A stretch of 5,444 nt of DNA. It comes from a virus (taxonomy: Duplodnaviria > Heunggongvirae > Uroviricota > Caudoviricetes). Below, one piece after another: positions 1 through 5,444 of this stretch. Made by a program: the position numbers and the translations under genes. Location: positions 1 to 5,444 of IMG/VR virus record IMGVR_UViG_2693429642_000001. The stretch is one strand, 5' to 3'. Each line of letters starts with the position of its first letter. Within the stretch, counting starts at the first letter, position 1. Under the pieces are notes generated by a model. It worked only from the letters and a program-made list of their open reading frames with translations, did not search any database and had not been told where the DNA came from.

Positions 1-296
1 CCATTGTCAGTAACTGCCCACCATTTGTTTCTCGAACAATCGTAATACCCTTCGAAGGTATCGCACTCAGTCCAGCCGTAAGACTTACCCCAACACCAAA
101 CATACTGTTTATCGTTCGGCATTCGCTCACTACAGCTTATCCAGCCATCCGTAGTTACCGGAGAATTGCCAGCCTTGCGCATGGCAATCTCCATGATTTC
201 AACCATATCCCCTGGTGGAATTTTACAATGCTGACCAGTATGCCTCTGCTGTCTGGCATATTCGAGGATGTGCTCCAGCTTGGTACGATTAATCAT
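1..296 (-). CDS. DUF551-like phage protein, partial (3' end runs past the left edge of the window)
   Basis: ATG at 296..294 overlaps the TGA stop (295..293) of the upstream gene (ATGA coupling); GGGAGA Shine-Dalgarno 6 nt upstream. Frame is open to position 3 (translation MINRTKLEHILEYARQQRHTGQHCKIPPGDMVEIMEIAMRKAGNSPVTTDGWISCSERMPNDKQYVWCWGKSYGWTECDTFEGYYDCSRNKWWAVTDNG...). The Trp-rich W-I-S-x-x-E-R-M-P segment resembles the DUF551 family common in enterobacterial prophages. Not in the ORF track because it lacks a stop inside the window. Confidence 0.5.
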   Translation of the reverse strand, partial: MINRTKLEHILEYARQQRHTGQHCKIPPGDMVEIMEIAMRKAGNSPVTTDGWISCSERMPNDKQYVWCWGKSYGWTECDTFEGYYDCSRNKWWAVTDN

Positions 297-802
297 GATT
301 TATCTCCCTTAAGCATGGCAGCGCGGCAGGCATCCTCTACGCCCTTAACTGCATCTGCGCAGTAGTTATAGCGATTGCATTCCACTAACTTCTGCTTGAG
401 ATTTTCAATTGATTGCGCGATATCAGCCTGTATTACCGGAGCTGGCGGAACGGCTGTCTGCACTCGAACGTCATCAGGTACTACCGGCTCTACTGCCAAC
501 TGACTGGCATATTTGTTAATGGTAACGATAAGCTCTTGCTCGGCCTCATCCAGACAATCACCGATACCTCGCCTGTCACCATCAAAATCATCGAAATCGG
601 CGCGAATCCTGGCAACCTCCCGGATTGCGGACAACACCTCACCAGGAATTACCGTAGAGTTGCCCGATAGTACATTCTGCTCCAGTGATGCCAGTGCAAT
701 CCGTGCCAGCTCACGAATCTCACCGCCGTCTATATCGTCAATGTCATCACGGCCAGAAATGTTAGCCAGCCATTGCAGTCGCTCTTTGGTAATAGTGATC
801 AT
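293..802 (-). CDS. hypothetical prophage protein (169 aa), acidic
   Basis: Track ORF with ATG start at 802..800 overlapping the upstream stop (ATGA); same strand and coupling as neighbours. No family recognised. N-terminal ~40 aa resemble the N-terminus of ORF 1977..2282 (see findings). Confidence 0.55.
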   Translation of the reverse strand: MITITKERLQWLANISGRDDIDDIDGGEIRELARIALASLEQNVLSGNSTVIPGEVLSAIREVARIRADFDDFDGDRRGIGDCLDEAEQELIVTINKYASQLAVEPVVPDDVRVQTAVPPAPVIQADIAQSIENLKQKLVECNRYNYCADAVKGVEDACRAAMLKGDKS

Positions 803-1314
803 GCCGCGTTTCCTTCTTCCTTATTAACAATTACACCGTCATATATTTCATTAAGGTGCCCTCTCAACTCCATGCGCCTTAATGCAGATAACATGTAATC
901 GCATTCAACCTGCTTATTCCCAGTAAATGGCTTATCGTCAGGATTACCCCAACAGCAATTACCCCTGGGCCATCCATGTACTTTCCGTACTCTTCCGTTA
1001 ACAACGTGAAGTAATCCCCAGCCGGGAGGTAAATCCTCAACTGAAATAATTTCCGGCTCACTAATAAAGAATCGCCAGTCGCCCATGCCAAGTGAGGGAT
1101 TTTTACGGAAACGCTTTTTTCTATCTGCCAACAAGTCAGCACGAGAACACTTCGCTTCTATCAGGCATGATGCTGAATTTCTGAATCCCATAGCATCTGG
1201 CTGTTCTCCGGTACTGGTTACAGCTATAAAGCGGTCATGAAAACAAACCTTGAACCCGTTGCGCTTAAGGAACTTGTACGCAATCTGACAGAGTTCGCGG
1301 TGTGTTAACGCCAT
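799..1314 (-). CDS. PD-(D/E)xK nuclease-fold protein, MmcB-family-like (171 aa)
   Basis: Start trimmed from the track start (1395) to ATG 1314..1312, which has an AAGGAG Shine-Dalgarno 6 nt upstream and sits 1 nt after the upstream TGA stop; the 1395 start has no RBS and would overlap the upstream gene by 80 nt. Protein (MALTHRELCQIAYKFLKRNGFKVCFHDRFIAVTSTGEQPDAMGF...CLIEAKCSRADL...) carries a D...E-x-K arrangement (PDA ... EAK) after a hydrophobic strand, as in PD-(D/E)xK nucleases; overall resembles 'MmcB family DNA repair protein' annotations in enterobacterial prophages (from memory). Confidence 0.55.
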   Translation of the reverse strand: MALTHRELCQIAYKFLKRNGFKVCFHDRFIAVTSTGEQPDAMGFRNSASCLIEAKCSRADLLADRKKRFRKNPSLGMGDWRFFISEPEIISVEDLPPGWGLLHVVNGRVRKVHGWPRGNCCWGNPDDKPFTGNKQVECDYMLSALRRMELRGHLNEIYDGVIVNKEEGNAA

Positions 1315-1315
1315 A

Positions 1316-1990
1316 TCACTCTCCTTTGATGCGAATGCCAGCGGCGCGTGGCACATTAACTTCCACGATGCGCACAGTTGGTTTGTACATCTCAATCGCT
1401 GTCAGCCAGTCAGCGCCAGTCATGCGCTTTTCTGCATCGCCATTAGTCCACTTAACCGGTACACCAATAGCCTTCATCGCGATTTCTATTTCCCCGGCAA
1501 TGGCGCTTTTTCCGCAACCAGTAAAACCAGAAACAACGACAAGAACTTCACCTTTGGCTGGTTTTATTTCCCGTGCTTCCAGTTCAGCAATACGCTTACT
1601 TCCATCCGAGATAACACCTTCGTAATACTCACGCTGCTCGTTGAGTTTTGATTTTGCCGACTCCAGTTGTTTTGTTAGTTCCGCAATACGGCAAACATCG
1701 TTGATACGCGTTTCCTCTAATGCGTTGATCTCATCCAGTAGTGCCAAAGCAACCTTTGGATTAAAGGCAGCAATAAATTCAGCGTTTGCGTAAGCCTGAG
1801 CATCTGTTTCAACCAGGCAGTTAACATGACATTCTGCAATCACGCCACCGGGTTCTCCTTTCCATTTTTGGCAAACAAAAACTCCTGTTAAATTGCCGTG
1901 CTGGTTAACAGATGTATGCCCTACGATGTAGCTTCCTTTAGTTGCTTTCTCTGCCTTTTCACGCAGTGCCTGATAGTTAATCTCGCTCAC
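1316..1990 (-). CDS. Ead/Ea22-like prophage protein with coiled-coil middle and a C-terminal Walker-A-like motif (224 aa)
   Basis: Track ORF 1316..2032 starts at a TTG with no RBS; a better start is GTG 1990..1988, preceded by AAGGAGG with a 6-nt spacer. N-terminal region (INYQALREKAEKATKGS...ANAEFIAAFNPKVALALLDEINALEE) resembles Ead/Ea22-like family proteins of lambdoid prophages (from memory). C-terminal part has EVLVVVSGFTGCGKSAIAG, i.e. hydrophobic strand + GxxxxGKS. Confidence 0.5.
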   Translation of the reverse strand: MSEINYQALREKAEKATKGSYIVGHTSVNQHGNLTGVFVCQKWKGEPGGVIAECHVNCLVETDAQAYANAEFIAAFNPKVALALLDEINALEETRINDVCRIAELTKQLESAKSKLNEQREYYEGVISDGSKRIAELEAREIKPAKGEVLVVVSGFTGCGKSAIAGEIEIAMKAIGVPVKWTNGDAEKRMTGADWLTAIEMYKPTVRIVEVNVPRAAGIRIKGE

Positions 1991-2282
1991 TGGCTGCCTC
2001 CTTTGCTGGGCTTTCGAATATATCAAACTCAAACAACTTAACTACGTCATCAAACAGGACATAATCGCCATCAGAATCTTCAGTCATGTCAGCGCCACAA
2101 TCCTGACCGAACGAGTCACAACCACCCATATCAAGCTCGTATCGCTTGAGTTTTGCGATATTTGATAAATTCAGCGCCAGTACAGCAAGGTCATAAACCT
2201 CGTCAGCGGTATACCCTGCACCATGCCCATACATTTCAATGCGGGATATGATTTCTTCTACACGTTGTTTTGTGATTGTCAT
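1977..2282 (-). CDS. hypothetical prophage protein (101 aa), acidic C-terminus
   Basis: ATG at 2282..2280 overlaps the TGA stop of the upstream gene (ATGA); its 3' end overlaps the next gene's GTG start by 14 nt. No family recognised. Confidence 0.5.
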   Translation of the reverse strand: MTITKQRVEEIISRIEMYGHGAGYTADEVYDLAVLALNLSNIAKLKRYELDMGGCDSFGQDCGADMTEDSDGDYVLFDDVVKLFEFDIFESPAKEAASERD

Positions 2283-2764
2283 TTTTGCTCACCTCCCTGT
2301 TCTTCCAGAAAAATACGCATAGCCTCAAGCATCTCTTCGGTGTCATACGGTGACAACTTGTCACGCAGGATGTGTTCAATGCTGTTAACGAACTTGCGGA
2401 TTGCTTTGCGTTCAATTTCAGCCAGGAAAGCGTCTGTAGCCGGGGTTTGCGGCATACCTCCGTCTGTTGCGCAGATATACGCATCAGATAGTTCATCCTG
2501 CTCGCCATCAAACACGTAGCAACTCTGTACGATAAATTTATTCAGCCCCGCACTCTCCGCTGCCAGCGCCGCGCACTTGGCCTCAAGGTTATCAATCGTG
2601 ATTCCAGCAGAACGACACTCCCGCAACGCCGTTTCTAGTTTTGATTCAAGTTCACCGAACTTACGGACAAGATATTCAGCGTTTGTTTCGTTAACCTTTA
2701 AATCTCGGGGGATGCATTTACCTTTCAGAAATCCATCCATCTCAATTAGTGACATTTGTTTCAT
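2279..2764 (-). CDS. hypothetical prophage protein (161 aa), predicted coiled-coil-rich
   Basis: ATG at 2764..2762 preceded by GGAGTGGGAAG (Shine-Dalgarno-like); long ORF on the operon strand; stop overlaps next start. No family recognised. Confidence 0.55.
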
Positions 2765-2935
2765 TTCTTCCCACTCCGCAACATCGCATTCAGATATTTG
2801 TTTTGATTTACTGATGGAAAAGAATTTCTCTTAAGCAATTCCTCTCTCGATGGCATTGGCTTTACGCGTTGGTGAATAATCATTTCTGCCGGAAGAATGC
2901 CGGGGTTGTATGCAAGTCATCTCATGGTAAATTCC

Positions 2936-3229
2936 TCAGTCATTACTGATAGCGCCATAGCGTGATCGGTAATTACGCAGGCGCGGGTCAATTTCAGGGA
3001 AGTGGGTATATGTGGCTTTGCGGAATGGTCGGATTGATGTCTGGTAAATTCGCTCGCGTTCTTCTTTCTCTGCAAGCCATATACAATGGCGAAATTCCTT
3101 TTCCTCTTTCGTTTCCTGCGGTAGCGACATTATCCGGTCGTAGTTTTTTCTGAATTTATCCAGCACCTCCGATACGGAATTGCCGGAACAGCGGCGCGCG
3201 TCGTCCGCACCATAGAGAGGCGCTGGCAT
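2936..3229 (-). CDS. hypothetical prophage protein (97 aa), highly charged
   Basis: ATG at 3229..3227 preceded by AGGAGA with a 5-nt spacer, 13 nt downstream of the ssb stop. No family recognised. Confidence 0.5.
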   Translation of the reverse strand: MPAPLYGADDARRCSGNSVSEVLDKFRKNYDRIMSLPQETKEEKEFRHCIWLAEKEERERIYQTSIRPFRKATYTHFPEIDPRLRNYRSRYGAISND

Positions 3230-3242
3230 GATTTTCTCCTGA

Positions 3243-3749
3243 TTAAATTGCGTGAATAGCGTGACGAGGGAAGGGGAGAGTTACTGGTGCAAAGGGTATA
3301 TCGTCGTCAAAATCCATCGGAGGTTCGTTGTGTTGTGCTGGTGATGATTGCTGCTGTGGCTTCTGTGATTGCCTGCTGGCTGCTTGTTGTTTGCTGTCGC
3401 CAATGCCGCCAAGCATTTGCATCACGCCATTAATTCCGACATGAACCTCGGTTGTGTAACGGTCTTGCCCTGACTGGTCTTTCCACTTTCTGGTTCTCAG
3501 CATTCCCTCGAAATAAATCTGATCACCTTTTTTCACATACTGCCCCACGACCCCAGCCAGTTTCCCGGATACAGCAACACGATACCATTCAGTCAATTCC
3601 TTTTGCTCGCCAGTATTTTTATCTCGCCATTGTTCTGACGTGGCTATTGTCAGGTTAGCGAACGCTGTACCTGATGGTGAGTATCGAACTTCCGGGTCTT
3701 GTCCTACCCGACCAAGGATAATCACCTTATTTATCCCGCGAGAACTCAT
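3243..3749 (-). CDS. ssb: single-stranded DNA-binding protein (phage-encoded SSB) with 15-residue C-terminal extension
   Basis: Protein aligns by eye with E. coli SSB: [23 protein letters not shown]..., ...TEWYRV..., ...[18 protein letters not shown]..., Gln/Pro-rich linker, acidic tail [11 protein letters not shown]. Start chosen as ATG 3749..3747 (AGGTGGAG Shine-Dalgarno 4-5 nt upstream, matches the E. coli SSB N-terminus) rather than the track's GTG at 3758. ATG overlaps the HNH gene's TGA stop (ATGA). Confidence 0.85.
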
Positions 3750-4213
3750 TTGCTCCACCTCTTGCCAGTTTTTATGTTGCTTATAATTGATTGAGATACA
3801 CCCATGTCTTTTGCTATCTTGTACTGACTCTCTTTTTCAGAGAGTCTTTTCCTGATTTCTATAACCTGCCACTCTGTTAATTTTGCACCATGATGAGCAT
3901 GACCTTTTTTTGCTCCACGATGCCTTCCTTTTGCTATCTTGTCGTCCATGTTTTCTTGCGCGCTACCTAAAAAGAGATGTTCAGGATTAACGCAGCATGG
4001 GTTATCGCATTTGTGGCAAACCATCTTCCCAGATGGGATGGGGGAGTGATAAAGCTCAAAAGCAACCCGATGAGAAAGCATTGTTACGCCAAAGGCTACA
4101 AATTTTGTGTATCCTCCTTTGTTTTTTGAATAGGTAGACTCCCAGCAACCTGTTGTTTCATTAACTTTGTAGCTGGACTCGAATCTTTTAATAATTCCGT
4201 CCAAGTGAGACAT
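3746..4213 (-). CDS. HNH endonuclease (phage homing-endonuclease-like) with C-terminal helix-turn-helix-like region
   Basis: Protein contains GCWES...GY...HRVAFELYH... and [26 protein letters not shown], the classic HNH signature; C-terminal [13 protein letters not shown]...[21 protein letters not shown] looks like an HTH. ATG 4213..4211 directly follows the annealase TAA stop. Region is visibly AT-rich compared with flanking genes. Confidence 0.8.
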
Positions 4214-4921
4214 TTATGCCGCCTGTTTTAGTTCGTTAACTCTGATGTTCATTACATGAACGCATTTAGCCTGCGCATCCTCATTGCCAGCCATTAATTG
4301 CCAGTCATGCTGATAACGTTCGATGAGTTTTTTCTTGTCAGTTTCTGTCGACGCATAATCGCTGAAGTCTTTCAGGATTTGTTCGCAGTCAACCGATGGA
4401 GATTTCTGGTTGGTATTTTCTGGTGATGGTTGATTGCCAGATGCTGGTATTGCCCATCCCGGCAGCGATGGAGGGGACCAGTAAAATCCTGTTCCATCCT
4501 TAAGTTTTTCCCTGTGCCATCCCTGCTTTTTATCGAGAGATGTTTGTGCGAAACCTTCCTCAAGGTTATACAGATACCGACCGATTCCCCACTGAACGGC
4601 AGCGCGCTTCATTGCACTGGAACGACCACCTTTTACGGCTTCTACCTGCGTGTTTTCAGCAGCATCCCATTTGGTTACCCATTCGGAATCAATCCTGATT
4701 GATATGCCGCATTCAACGCCTCCGTTGTTGGGAATATCGCGGTATTCATTGCGCCATCCTGCTTTGCCGCAAACATCGTCCAGGCGTTTCATGATTGCCC
4801 TGTTCGTGACATAAGCCAGCACCATAGCCCACACCTTTCCATCGCGTGTTTTACCGCTTTGCTGTATTCGCCATTCGATATCTTCAGGGCTGAATGGCTC
4901 ATCGAATTTATTCAAATCCAT
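4214..4921 (-). CDS. Rad52/Rad22-family single-strand annealing protein (phage recombinase, Sak-like)
   Basis: ATG 4921..4919 with AGGTGA Shine-Dalgarno 4-5 nt upstream. Protein has Rad52-family hallmarks (...GKVWAMVLAYVTNRAIMKRLDDVCGKAGWRNEY..., ...EAVKGGRSSAMKRAAVQWGIGRYLYNL...), comparable to the G-x-G...KEA.TD..KRALR.FGN core of Rad52. Adjacent to ssb, as in phage recombination modules. Confidence 0.7.
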   Translation of the reverse strand: MDLNKFDEPFSPEDIEWRIQQSGKTRDGKVWAMVLAYVTNRAIMKRLDDVCGKAGWRNEYRDIPNNGGVECGISIRIDSEWVTKWDAAENTQVEAVKGGRSSAMKRAAVQWGIGRYLYNLEEGFAQTSLDKKQGWHREKLKDGTGFYWSPPSLPGWAIPASGNQPSPENTNQKSPSVDCEQILKDFSDYASTETDKKKLIERYQHDWQLMAGNEDAQAKCVHVMNIRVNELKQAA

Positions 4922-4929
4922 AATTCACC

Positions 4930-5100
4930 TCAGAATGGACATAGCCCAAGGAAATAACGCTGATTTAATACTTCGACTCGGGACAAATTAAGGCATACCC
5001 GCATTCCTTCGCGGTCACCATTATGGCGATACCAGAGAGCTTTCTGCGTGTATATGCGTCTCTGTAACTTGCTCTCCTTCACTGTGGTTGCAAGTGACAT
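4930..5100 (-). CDS. small hypothetical ORF (56 aa) directly upstream of the annealase gene; coding status uncertain
   Basis: ATG 5100..5098 with GGAGA about 7 nt upstream; TGA stop 8 nt before the annealase RBS. The track's longer version (start 5136) begins inside the IS terminus and is rejected. Contains many rare codons (AGA, ATA, CGG, CGA, CTA), so it may be non-coding or a remnant. Confidence 0.3.
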   Translation of the reverse strand: MSLATTVKESKLQRRIYTQKALWYRHNGDREGMRVCLNLSRVEVLNQRYFLGLCPF

Positions 5101-5174
5101 GAATATCTCCTGAGGTAGCCTGAGTTTAACGGACACTCCTTCCTGAAATAGAATGGCATCAGAAGGAGCTAATA

Positions 5175-5444
5175 ATGAGCAGAAAAACCCAACGTTACTC
5201 TAAAGAGTTCAAAGCCGAAGCTGTCAGAACGGTTCTTGAAAATCAACTTTCGATCAGTGAAGGCGCTTCCCGATTATCTCTTCCTGAAGGCACTTTAGGA
5301 CAATGGGTTACCGCCGCCAGAAAAGGGCTCGGTACTCCTGGTTCCCGCACGGTGGCTGAACTGGAATCTGAAATTCTGCAACTGCGTAAGGCGTTAAATG
5401 AAGCTCGCCTTGAGCGAGATATATTAAAAAAAGCAACAGCGTAT
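5175..5444 (+). CDS. IS3-family transposase OrfA (IS600-like), partial at 3' end
   Basis: ATG 5175 with AAGGAG 6 nt upstream; translation MSRKTQRYSKEFKAEAVRTVLENQLSISEGASRLSLPEGTLGQWVTAARKGLGTPGSRTVAELESEILQLRKALNEARLERDILKKATAY has the N-terminal HTH and leucine-zipper-like region of IS3-family OrfA; matches my recollection of IS600 OrfA. Confidence 0.85.
   Translation, partial: MSRKTQRYSKEFKAEAVRTVLENQLSISEGASRLSLPEGTLGQWVTAARKGLGTPGSRTVAELESEILQLRKALNEARLERDILKKATAY
5426..5433 (+). other. putative programmed -1 ribosomal frameshift slippery site (A7G) for OrfAB transposase fusion
   Basis: Run AAAAAAAG at 5426..5433, read in frame as TTA AAA AAA GCA near the end of orfA, which is where IS3-family elements carry their A6G/A7 slippery motif. 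The downstream stimulatory structure and orfB are outside the window. Confidence 0.5.

Follow-up and report, generated by a model that had tools for sequence, protein, structure and literature searches.

The window analysed here is the whole stretch of 5,444 nucleotides (nt) of the tailed-virus record (Caudoviricetes) IMGVR_UViG_2693429642_000001 from IMG/VR, positions 1 to 5,444. Between the gene of a Rad52/Sak-type single-strand annealing protein (the annealase; 4214..4921, minus strand; Pfam Rad52_Rad22 1.5e-25) and ssb (3243..3749, minus strand; Pfam SSB 5.8e-35), which encodes a bacterial-type single-stranded DNA-binding protein (SSB) of 168 amino acids (aa), it carries an inserted gene for an HNH endonuclease of 155 aa (3746..4213, minus strand). 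We consider it probable that this is a homing endonuclease gene whose product, with an HNH_3 core and a C-terminal helix-turn-helix (HTH) domain as in I-HmuI, homes on the first codons of the bacterial-type ssb of phages. We infer cleavage and homing by the HNH protein from the comparison of loci and from its predicted fold, and that any given copy is active today we hold with less confidence than the homing reading as a whole. The gene, found in the list of open reading frames (ORFs), matches Pfam HNH_3 at 1.1e-13 and the PHROG families 59, 1872 and 6254 ('HNH endonuclease'), and it is missing from loci that are otherwise about 98% identical.

The earlier note on this DNA had described the annealase-ssb junction as filled with no spare sequence, and this is what the sequence reads. 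The annealase stop TAA (4216-4214) abuts the HNH start ATG (4213-4211) with zero spacer, a left junction (4211..4216, minus strand) that was also recovered in the junction alignment described below, and the HNH stop TGA (3748-3746) shares an ATGA with the ssb start ATG (3749-3747; overlap at 3746..3749, minus strand). An in-frame GTG at 3758 is an alternative candidate for the ssb start; PGAP and the related loci take the ATG. The same note had called the HNH gene visibly more AT-rich than both neighbours, and the GC computation that it proposed agreed: the GC content of the gene is 0.408, against 0.485 for ssb and 0.473 for the annealase gene (40.8% against 47-49%), with a window mean of 0.465. 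The gene is the most AT-rich 468-bp stretch, every 468-bp window that avoids it being higher in GC, and the break against the two neighbours is real but modest (chi-square p = 0.0125). At third codon positions the HNH gene has a GC of 0.39 against 0.44-0.46 in the neighbours (about 5-6 points), and the largest gap is at first positions (0.43 against 0.55-0.59), so that part of the difference reflects amino-acid composition. The HNH homolog had a lower GC than both flanking genes in all nine further lineages examined.

The gene is present or absent at one precise site among close relatives. The region 3243-4921 of the window was compared by megablast with 50,697 phage genomes and, as the earlier note had expected, relatives with annealase and ssb directly adjacent were found. 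The two genes are 97-98% identical in mEp235, mEpX2 and HK75 and 90% identical in epsilon34 and g341c; in these HNH-less phages a record span of 1215 bp corresponds to the 1679-bp query and the two genes abut as TAAATG. Escherichia coli FHI_NMBU_03 likewise has an empty site with flanks that are about 98% identical. The earlier note held that an HNH gene carried by all relatives with matching composition would speak against an invasion; what we found in 5426 complete E. coli genomes is the module in 420 and the HNH gene in 41, each time annotated together with ssb, which amounts to about 10% of near-identical modules, annealase and ssb being directly adjacent in the other 90% or so. The annealase is 95-100% identical across loci with and without the HNH gene, and the boundaries of the insert are identical in all occupied loci. 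By a protein-based search the gene was found in 29 IMG/VR contigs, with at least 99% aa identity in 23 of them and about 74% in the other six; a DNA pattern for the 3' junction retrieved the same 29 contigs, and the pattern of the empty junction at least 120 sites. None of the 93 records matching the module region among the isolated phage genomes has the insert, and the only DNA match of the HNH gene itself in that collection is to one Vibrio phage, at 69% identity. A scan of contigs from one genome per species with the HNH protein gave only a distant planctomycete relative.

Among 28 loci the HNH gene has a mean pairwise nt identity of 99.6%, and these loci carry two ssb backbones that are about 63-65% identical to each other. 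For ssb type 1, the type of the window, 39 loci were empty and 22 occupied; for type 2, the type of phage Sf6, 40 were empty and six occupied. Among the HNH-bearing loci the HNH gene has a mean synonymous divergence (dS) of 0.012-0.015, which is 6-7 times below the 0.087 of the annealase gene next to it. The low diversity of the HNH gene relative to the annealase gene and its presence on two ssb backbones give indirect support for homing. All 41 full-length copies are intact, with a ratio of non-synonymous to synonymous change (dN/dS) of about 0.03-0.27, mostly below 0.1.

The anatomy of the cassette was read from an alignment of six occupied and five empty junctions, all with identical boundaries. 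Between the ssb start codon and ssb nt 17, the occupied allele is longer than the empty one by exactly 468 nt. The empty allele reads …CAGGCGGCATAA ATG GCA AGC AGA GGC GTA AAT AAG GTG… and contains CAGGCGGCATAAATGGCAAGCAGAGGCGTAAATAAGGTGAT at the junction, and the occupied allele reads …CAGGCGGCATAA ATG TCT CAC … (HNH) … AAGAGGTGGAGCAA ATG A GT TCT CGC GGG ATA AAT AAG GTG…. The HNH ATG at the left junction is therefore the ssb start codon of the HNH-less relatives; since the HNH ORF begins at the old ssb start codon, it inherits its translation-initiation region. At the other end, within the 3' end of the HNH gene and 3-4 nt 5' of the new ssb ATG, lies the Shine-Dalgarno-like stretch AAGAGGTGGAG (3753..3763, minus strand), by which the cassette would supply ssb with a ribosome-binding site as well as a new ATG. 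The AAAGGTGG/AAGAGGTGG motif is kept at the same position in the loci of homologs, and the overlap of the HNH gene and ssb is 4 nt in the Vibrio phage, Cronobacter, Citrobacter and metagenome loci and 8 nt in Shewanella.

The right-hand end of the cassette consists of the recoded ssb nt 4-16, codons 2-6 (3734..3746, minus strand). These codons are AGT TCT CGC GGG ATA in the window and GCA AGC AGA GGC GTA in empty sites, a difference of 10 of 13 bases that changes the peptide only by A2S and V6I, the former because the ATGA overlap forces it. The codons of Ser (AGC to TCT), Arg (AGA to CGC) and Gly (GGC to GGG) are changed as far as synonymy allows, those of Ser and Arg having moved to the other six-fold family. 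On one ssb backbone, with 22 occupied and 39 empty loci, HNH status and ssb nt 4-16 are completely associated, and in the same loci no association with HNH status was seen from ssb nt 17 onward or in the 600 nt upstream. The carrier allele thus differs from the target at the 10 bases fully linked to the insert, and in it the site is split by 468 nt; the recoded codons 2-6 are a putative self-immunity determinant. No terminal inverted or direct repeats and no target-site duplication were found at the ends of the insert. The 3' end of the HNH gene (…TGGCAAGAGGTGGAGCAAATG) was considered as a vestigial duplicate of the ssb start (ATGGCAAGCAGAGGCGTAAAT) and this was rejected: it encodes G-K-R-W with a near-invariant Trp and is kept in family members that lie away from ssb.

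All ten clusters of HNH homologs at 51% identity or above lie directly upstream of ssb, and the gene on their other side varies (Rad52, ERF, RdgC/FtsK-gamma, Sipho_Gp157, YqaJ or unknown), whereas the three clusters tested at 47% identity or below lie in other contexts. The ssb-linked homologs came from a Vibrio phage, Cronobacter, Citrobacter, Shewanella and several metagenomic contigs, so that the same position in the same target gene is used across divergent genomes. Because homologs sit upstream of ssb behind at least five unrelated genes, homing probably targets the first 16 nt or so of ssb and not the annealase-ssb junction as such. The proposal of the earlier note, a free-standing homing gene that invaded a conserved recombination module, therefore holds in its general outline, on the strength of the polymorphism, the break in composition, the intact HNH motif and a fold like that of I-HmuI and I-PpoI; its view of the junction as the invaded site had to be changed, the conserved partner being the start of ssb.

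The closest relative in isolated phages, at 62% aa identity, is that of Vibrio phage 1.079.O, where the HNH gene lies between an ERF-family annealase gene, a family different from Rad52, and ssb, with a 4-nt ssb overlap. The sister phages 1.003.O and 1.067.O of Vibrio lentus have no HNH gene, an ERF-ssb gap of 11 nt and flanks that for the most part match 1.079.O at 93-100% identity; this is an independent case of presence and absence. Phage 1.079.O keeps the original ssb start ATG GCA TCA CGC GG upstream of its HNH gene as a stub, ATGGCATCACGCGG (MASRG...), of 12 codons (MASRGYIGYNYL*) between the ERF and HNH genes (locus L010, 2930-3000). Next come the HNH gene, which has a ribosome-binding site of its own, and a new ssb start, ATG AGT AGT AGA GGG ATA. 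From ssb nt 17 onward the sequence again matches the empty allele, which puts the Vibrio insertion point inside ssb codon 5/6 and its right boundary where the enteric lineage has it. The two lineages are recoded in opposite directions: TCA CGC (empty) and AGT AGA (occupied) in Vibrio, AGC AGA (empty) and TCT CGC (occupied) in the enteric loci. This pattern would fit selection for unlikeness to the local target and not a shared ancestry of the replacement codons. Several homologs begin with the SSB-like MA[S/A/T][R/K]G, which suggests that their ORFs may be fused to a captured ssb start.

The HNH protein itself has the features expected of such an enzyme. It matches Pfam HNH_3 (PF13392) with 51 bits against a cut-off of 24.8. 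The match places the HNH or His-Me finger catalytic core at residues 48-89 (3947..4072, minus strand), with C66, H67, C69, D70, C74, N76 and H79 in it and N88 just outside the match; all eight residues are invariant in an alignment of 44 sequences and present in the window protein. A weak C-terminal HTH profile match was also seen in Pfam, and a three-helix HTH DNA-binding domain is predicted at residues ~111-146 (3776..3883, minus strand). An AlphaFold model built on the 44-homolog alignment, with a mean predicted local distance difference test score of 88.8, shows an N-terminal sheet and the beta-beta-alpha core, followed by a linker of low confidence and a C-terminal domain of three helices. 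I-HmuI and I-PpoI, the closest in fold, can be aligned with the model, and its predicted architecture of a beta-sheet DNA-binding region, an HNH core and a C-terminal HTH is like that of I-HmuI. A search of the PDB by sequence alone gave nothing significant. The coding sequence contains an exact 15-nt direct repeat at 3808-3822 and 3928-3942 (CTTTTGCTATCTTGT, plus strand), which encodes KIAK once in the post-HNH helix (DKIAKG) and once in the HTH (YKIAKD) and is probably a coincidence.

According to the model that we favour, genomes with and without the HNH gene would share a cell, and the enzyme would nick or cut the empty allele in or close to ssb codons 1-6, recognising the empty ssb start and perhaps also, in enteric phages, the conserved annealase tail just upstream. 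Repair of the break from the HNH-bearing copy would then copy the cassette in, with the surrounding annealase/SSB/Abc2 module as a plausible repair machinery, and the recoded codons together with the split site would protect the carrier from being cut. The gene is a separate ORF with its own stop and lies in neither an intron nor an intein. A scan for promoters and terminators gave no more than shuffled sequence would, and nothing on the coding strand, and the HNH gene therefore seems to depend on the transcription of the operon.

A bolder extension of this model, possible in our view but doubtful, is that a whole clade of HNH endonucleases is dedicated to ssb starts in Enterobacterales, Vibrio, Shewanella and others, recoding the local start in each case, some of them borrowing the start codon of the target, and maybe cutting the ssb of competitors or even of the host, which would make the gene a weapon and not a mere passenger. 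If the enzyme had a tolerance of sequence changes like that of I-HmuI, it might cut the ssb of competing prophages, because the recognised sequence encodes the near-universal MASRGVNKV. The start of the host chromosomal ssb presumably differs from the phage target at only a few third positions. No description of an HNH lineage specific for ssb starts was found in the literature searched, whose coverage was incomplete, so that an earlier description is possible. The general concepts of homing genes are already known, and the capture of the start codon together with a lineage-specific recoded start is a detail at the level of a variant.

Several observations weigh against homing. The dS of ssb type 1 (0.015) is as low as that of the HNH gene, and the HNH gene is therefore 'younger than its flanks' only when set against the annealase gene and against the split between ssb types 1 and 2. 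A co-conversion tract or gradient was looked for in the flanking single-nucleotide polymorphisms (SNPs) and none was seen, and the pattern could therefore also come from ordinary mosaic recombination at short conserved boundaries. The linkage census is partly circular, since the junction patterns by which the loci were collected include ssb nt 4-14; two checks are independent of this, the protein-based search, which returned recoded junctions only, and a scan of IMG/VR for empty junctions with a recoded ssb start, which gave zero. Intact ORFs, purifying selection and a conserved, coupled HNH-ssb synteny have the look of a useful gene. Finally, in the loci that could be scored, another nuclease is missing from 20 of 28 modules with the HNH gene and from 30 of 94 without it (Fisher p = 3e-4, kinship ignored; the other nucleases counted include the DnaQ-like exonuclease).

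The last two points bear on the alternative that the HNH protein is a genuine or domesticated nuclease of the recombination module, making nicks or ends for annealase and SSB, with a patchy distribution due to the shuffling of modules. A survey from 2025 lists HNH endonucleases as the fourth nuclease type of lambdoid Rec modules, with a warning about their mobility, and counts HNH genes as possible true recombination nucleases (PMC12315714). The adjacency of the HNH gene and ssb, with an overlap of 4-8 nt, is kept down to 51% protein identity, and the 41 intact copies under purifying selection would suit such a role as well as the deficit of other nucleases does. We nevertheless find this explanation unlikely. 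The HNH gene is missing from about 90% of the modules that have this annealase and ssb, and all four combinations of HNH gene and exonuclease occur. The gene is not a regular companion of annealase and SSB, and loci that carry it may have or lack the DnaQ-like exonuclease and the Sf6-type endonuclease. The ssb stub in Vibrio and the MASRG-like starts of homologs speak for an insertion into ssb and not for a co-evolved partner, it is not obvious what a cooperative function would gain from an ssb start recoded to the synonymous maximum, and the protein has the fold and the arrangement of domains of a site-specific homing enzyme. The survey treats the HNH genes of these modules as probable module nucleases (PMC12315714), whereas the present evidence points to a selfish insertion.

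The absence of a co-conversion tract bears on a second alternative, that of a retired homing gene that is passive cargo, moved only by general or short-homology mosaic recombination between boundaries formed by the conserved annealase tail and ssb codons 6-9. These boundaries do match short sequences conserved across modules (…AAACAGGCGGCATAAATG and TAAATAAGGTG), and no linkage to flanking SNPs was seen. The dearth of the gene in isolated phages (the single 69% match in Vibrio and no insert in the 93 module-matching records) is in line with this account, as is the location of the window copy in a prophage disrupted by the insertion sequence IS600. However, decaying homing genes normally gain stops and frameshifts, and here 41 of 41 copies are intact under a dN/dS that speaks for selection; the synonymous diversity of the HNH gene is also 6-7 times below that of the adjacent annealase gene, and the same site is filled in distant lineages with a recoding particular to each. 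We rate a retired gene as slightly less probable even than a module nuclease.

Other kinds of element are highly improbable: HNH domains are found in transposon or insertion-sequence, intron, packaging and defence contexts, and a transposon or insertion-sequence passenger, an intron-encoded enzyme, a terminase-associated packaging HNH protein and an anti-phage defence nuclease were each considered on that general ground and rejected on repeats (none at the insert ends), Rfam (no family in the window, group I and II introns included), PADLOC (the only notable match a generic 'homing endonuclease' model at 1.9e-7, besides a weak HTH model at 0.008) and gene context (the early-left recombination region, with annealase, ssb, abc2 and Ead/Ea22-type genes as neighbours, and no terminase or portal gene at a cos end beside it as for the HK97 gp74 type).

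Homing on ssb, as proposed here, can be set beside known systems. The fold leads to I-HmuI, I-HmuII and I-BasI, HNH nicking homing endonucleases of the Bacillus phages SPO1, SP82 and Bastille (structure 1U3E). These enzymes are only 17-19% identical in sequence to the window protein and lie inside group I introns of the DNA polymerase gene, whereas the window gene has no intron. The choice of target recalls T4 SegG, whose gene adjoins gene 32 and which targets this gene of the phage single-stranded DNA-binding protein. SegG is however a GIY-YIG enzyme and gp32 is not homologous to the bacterial-type SSB, while the window enzyme belongs to HNH_3. Like the free-standing homing genes of T-even phages such as SegG and MobE ('intronless homing', PMC2988022, PMC2790892), the window gene stands at the edge of conserved genes, is present or absent among close relatives and is carried by an allele that differs from the target; in T-even phages the carriers are protected by this difference and the genes spread by break repair from the carrier genome. 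The T-even genes usually have their own promoters and are intergenic, whereas the window gene is spliced seamlessly into an operon of a temperate lambdoid or P22-like phage, reusing the start codon of its target and bringing a recoded replacement start with it.

If the homing reading is right, the first 16-30 nt or so of phage ssb would be a concrete homing site for an uncharacterised HNH_3 enzyme, with the natural recoded variant as a resistant control. It would also call for caution in counting such HNH genes as functional nucleases of lambdoid recombination modules, and would offer a natural example of a selfish gene that entered an operon without disturbing the translation of its host gene.

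All long ORFs of the window are on the minus strand. The anti-RecBCD gene abc2 (2936..3229, minus strand; Pfam Anti-RecBCD_p2 5.6e-63) completes the recombination module, and the stretch annealase-HNH-ssb-abc2 is the early-left recombination module of P22-like and lambda-like phages. Upstream, the whole-window matches to HNH-bearing E. coli prophages end at 5111, and at 5112-5444 the window matches IS600 with 100% identity. This element of the IS3 family was found in about 3000 E. coli genomes and on plasmids and is typical of Shigella. A small gene of a 'recombinase' PHROG, with its ATG at 5100, precedes the annealase gene, and IS600 ends 10 nt upstream of this ATG. By this insertion the kil/cIII/N/PL region of related loci has been displaced from the early-left operon. 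Expression of the window operon from PL is therefore unlikely, the prophage is probably defective and decaying, and the HNH gene is probably carried in it as a silent passenger.

The 3' end of ssb also drew our attention. The window SSB runs on past the canonical …DFDDDIPF (3243-3290). In Sf6 and Huey, ssb ends right after IPF and is followed by an endonuclease gene (Sf6 gp26 type, PHROG 2340) that ends like the tail of the window SSB and is nucleotide-identical to it there (loci L003, 2501-2980, and L002, 2501-2968). The shared tail points to a second insertion site for endonuclease genes in ssb, directly after the IPF codon, and the window ssb would then have at its 3' end either the unoccupied site or the scar of a deletion. 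Where IPF is not the C-terminus of an SSB, the binding of partner proteins may be altered. The Sf6 gp26 and Huey endonuclease genes are thus inserted in the same ssb gene as the window HNH gene, that of Sf6 at or after its 3' end and not at its 5' end; Sf6 gp26 has no sequence similarity to the window HNH protein, belongs to a different PHROG and has a weak likeness to endonuclease VII. With the start codon and the position right after the C-terminal IPF codon, ssb would be a hot spot for the insertion of endonuclease genes, and such sites would help to account for mosaic boundaries in P22-like and lambda-like phages.

The interval between ssb and abc2 was compared in 167 loci, where it holds the DnaQ-like exonuclease, the Sf6-type endonuclease, both, the ES18 type or nothing. 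The ES18 type, a third kind of endonuclease in this interval, is represented by ES18 gp47 (locus L032, 1164-1685; HNH_3 8.6e-13), which is catalogued in PMC12315714; it is an HNH_3 protein of the same operon and module as the window protein, but its gene lies downstream of ssb and not at its 5' end.

Farther left in the window are Ead/Ea22-type and unknown 'ea' genes. If the Ead/Ea22-like ORF is counted from its first TTG (1316-2032), it extends 56-80 nt into the neighbour on either side (1316-1395 and 1977-2032), and its real start is probably further downstream. The ORFs of the ea region at 293-802, 799-1395, 1977-2282 and 2279-2764 had no Pfam match above the cut-off and fell only into PHROG families of unknown function. 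Unrelated HNH genes are scattered in the early-left regions of relatives, namely epsilon34 gp31 (locus L004, 765-1457) and two in locus L007 (1-463 and 4274-4690). Gene 31 of epsilon34 is an eaE-HNH fusion (PMC2629481), and the early-left region seems generally permissive for insertions of HNH genes.

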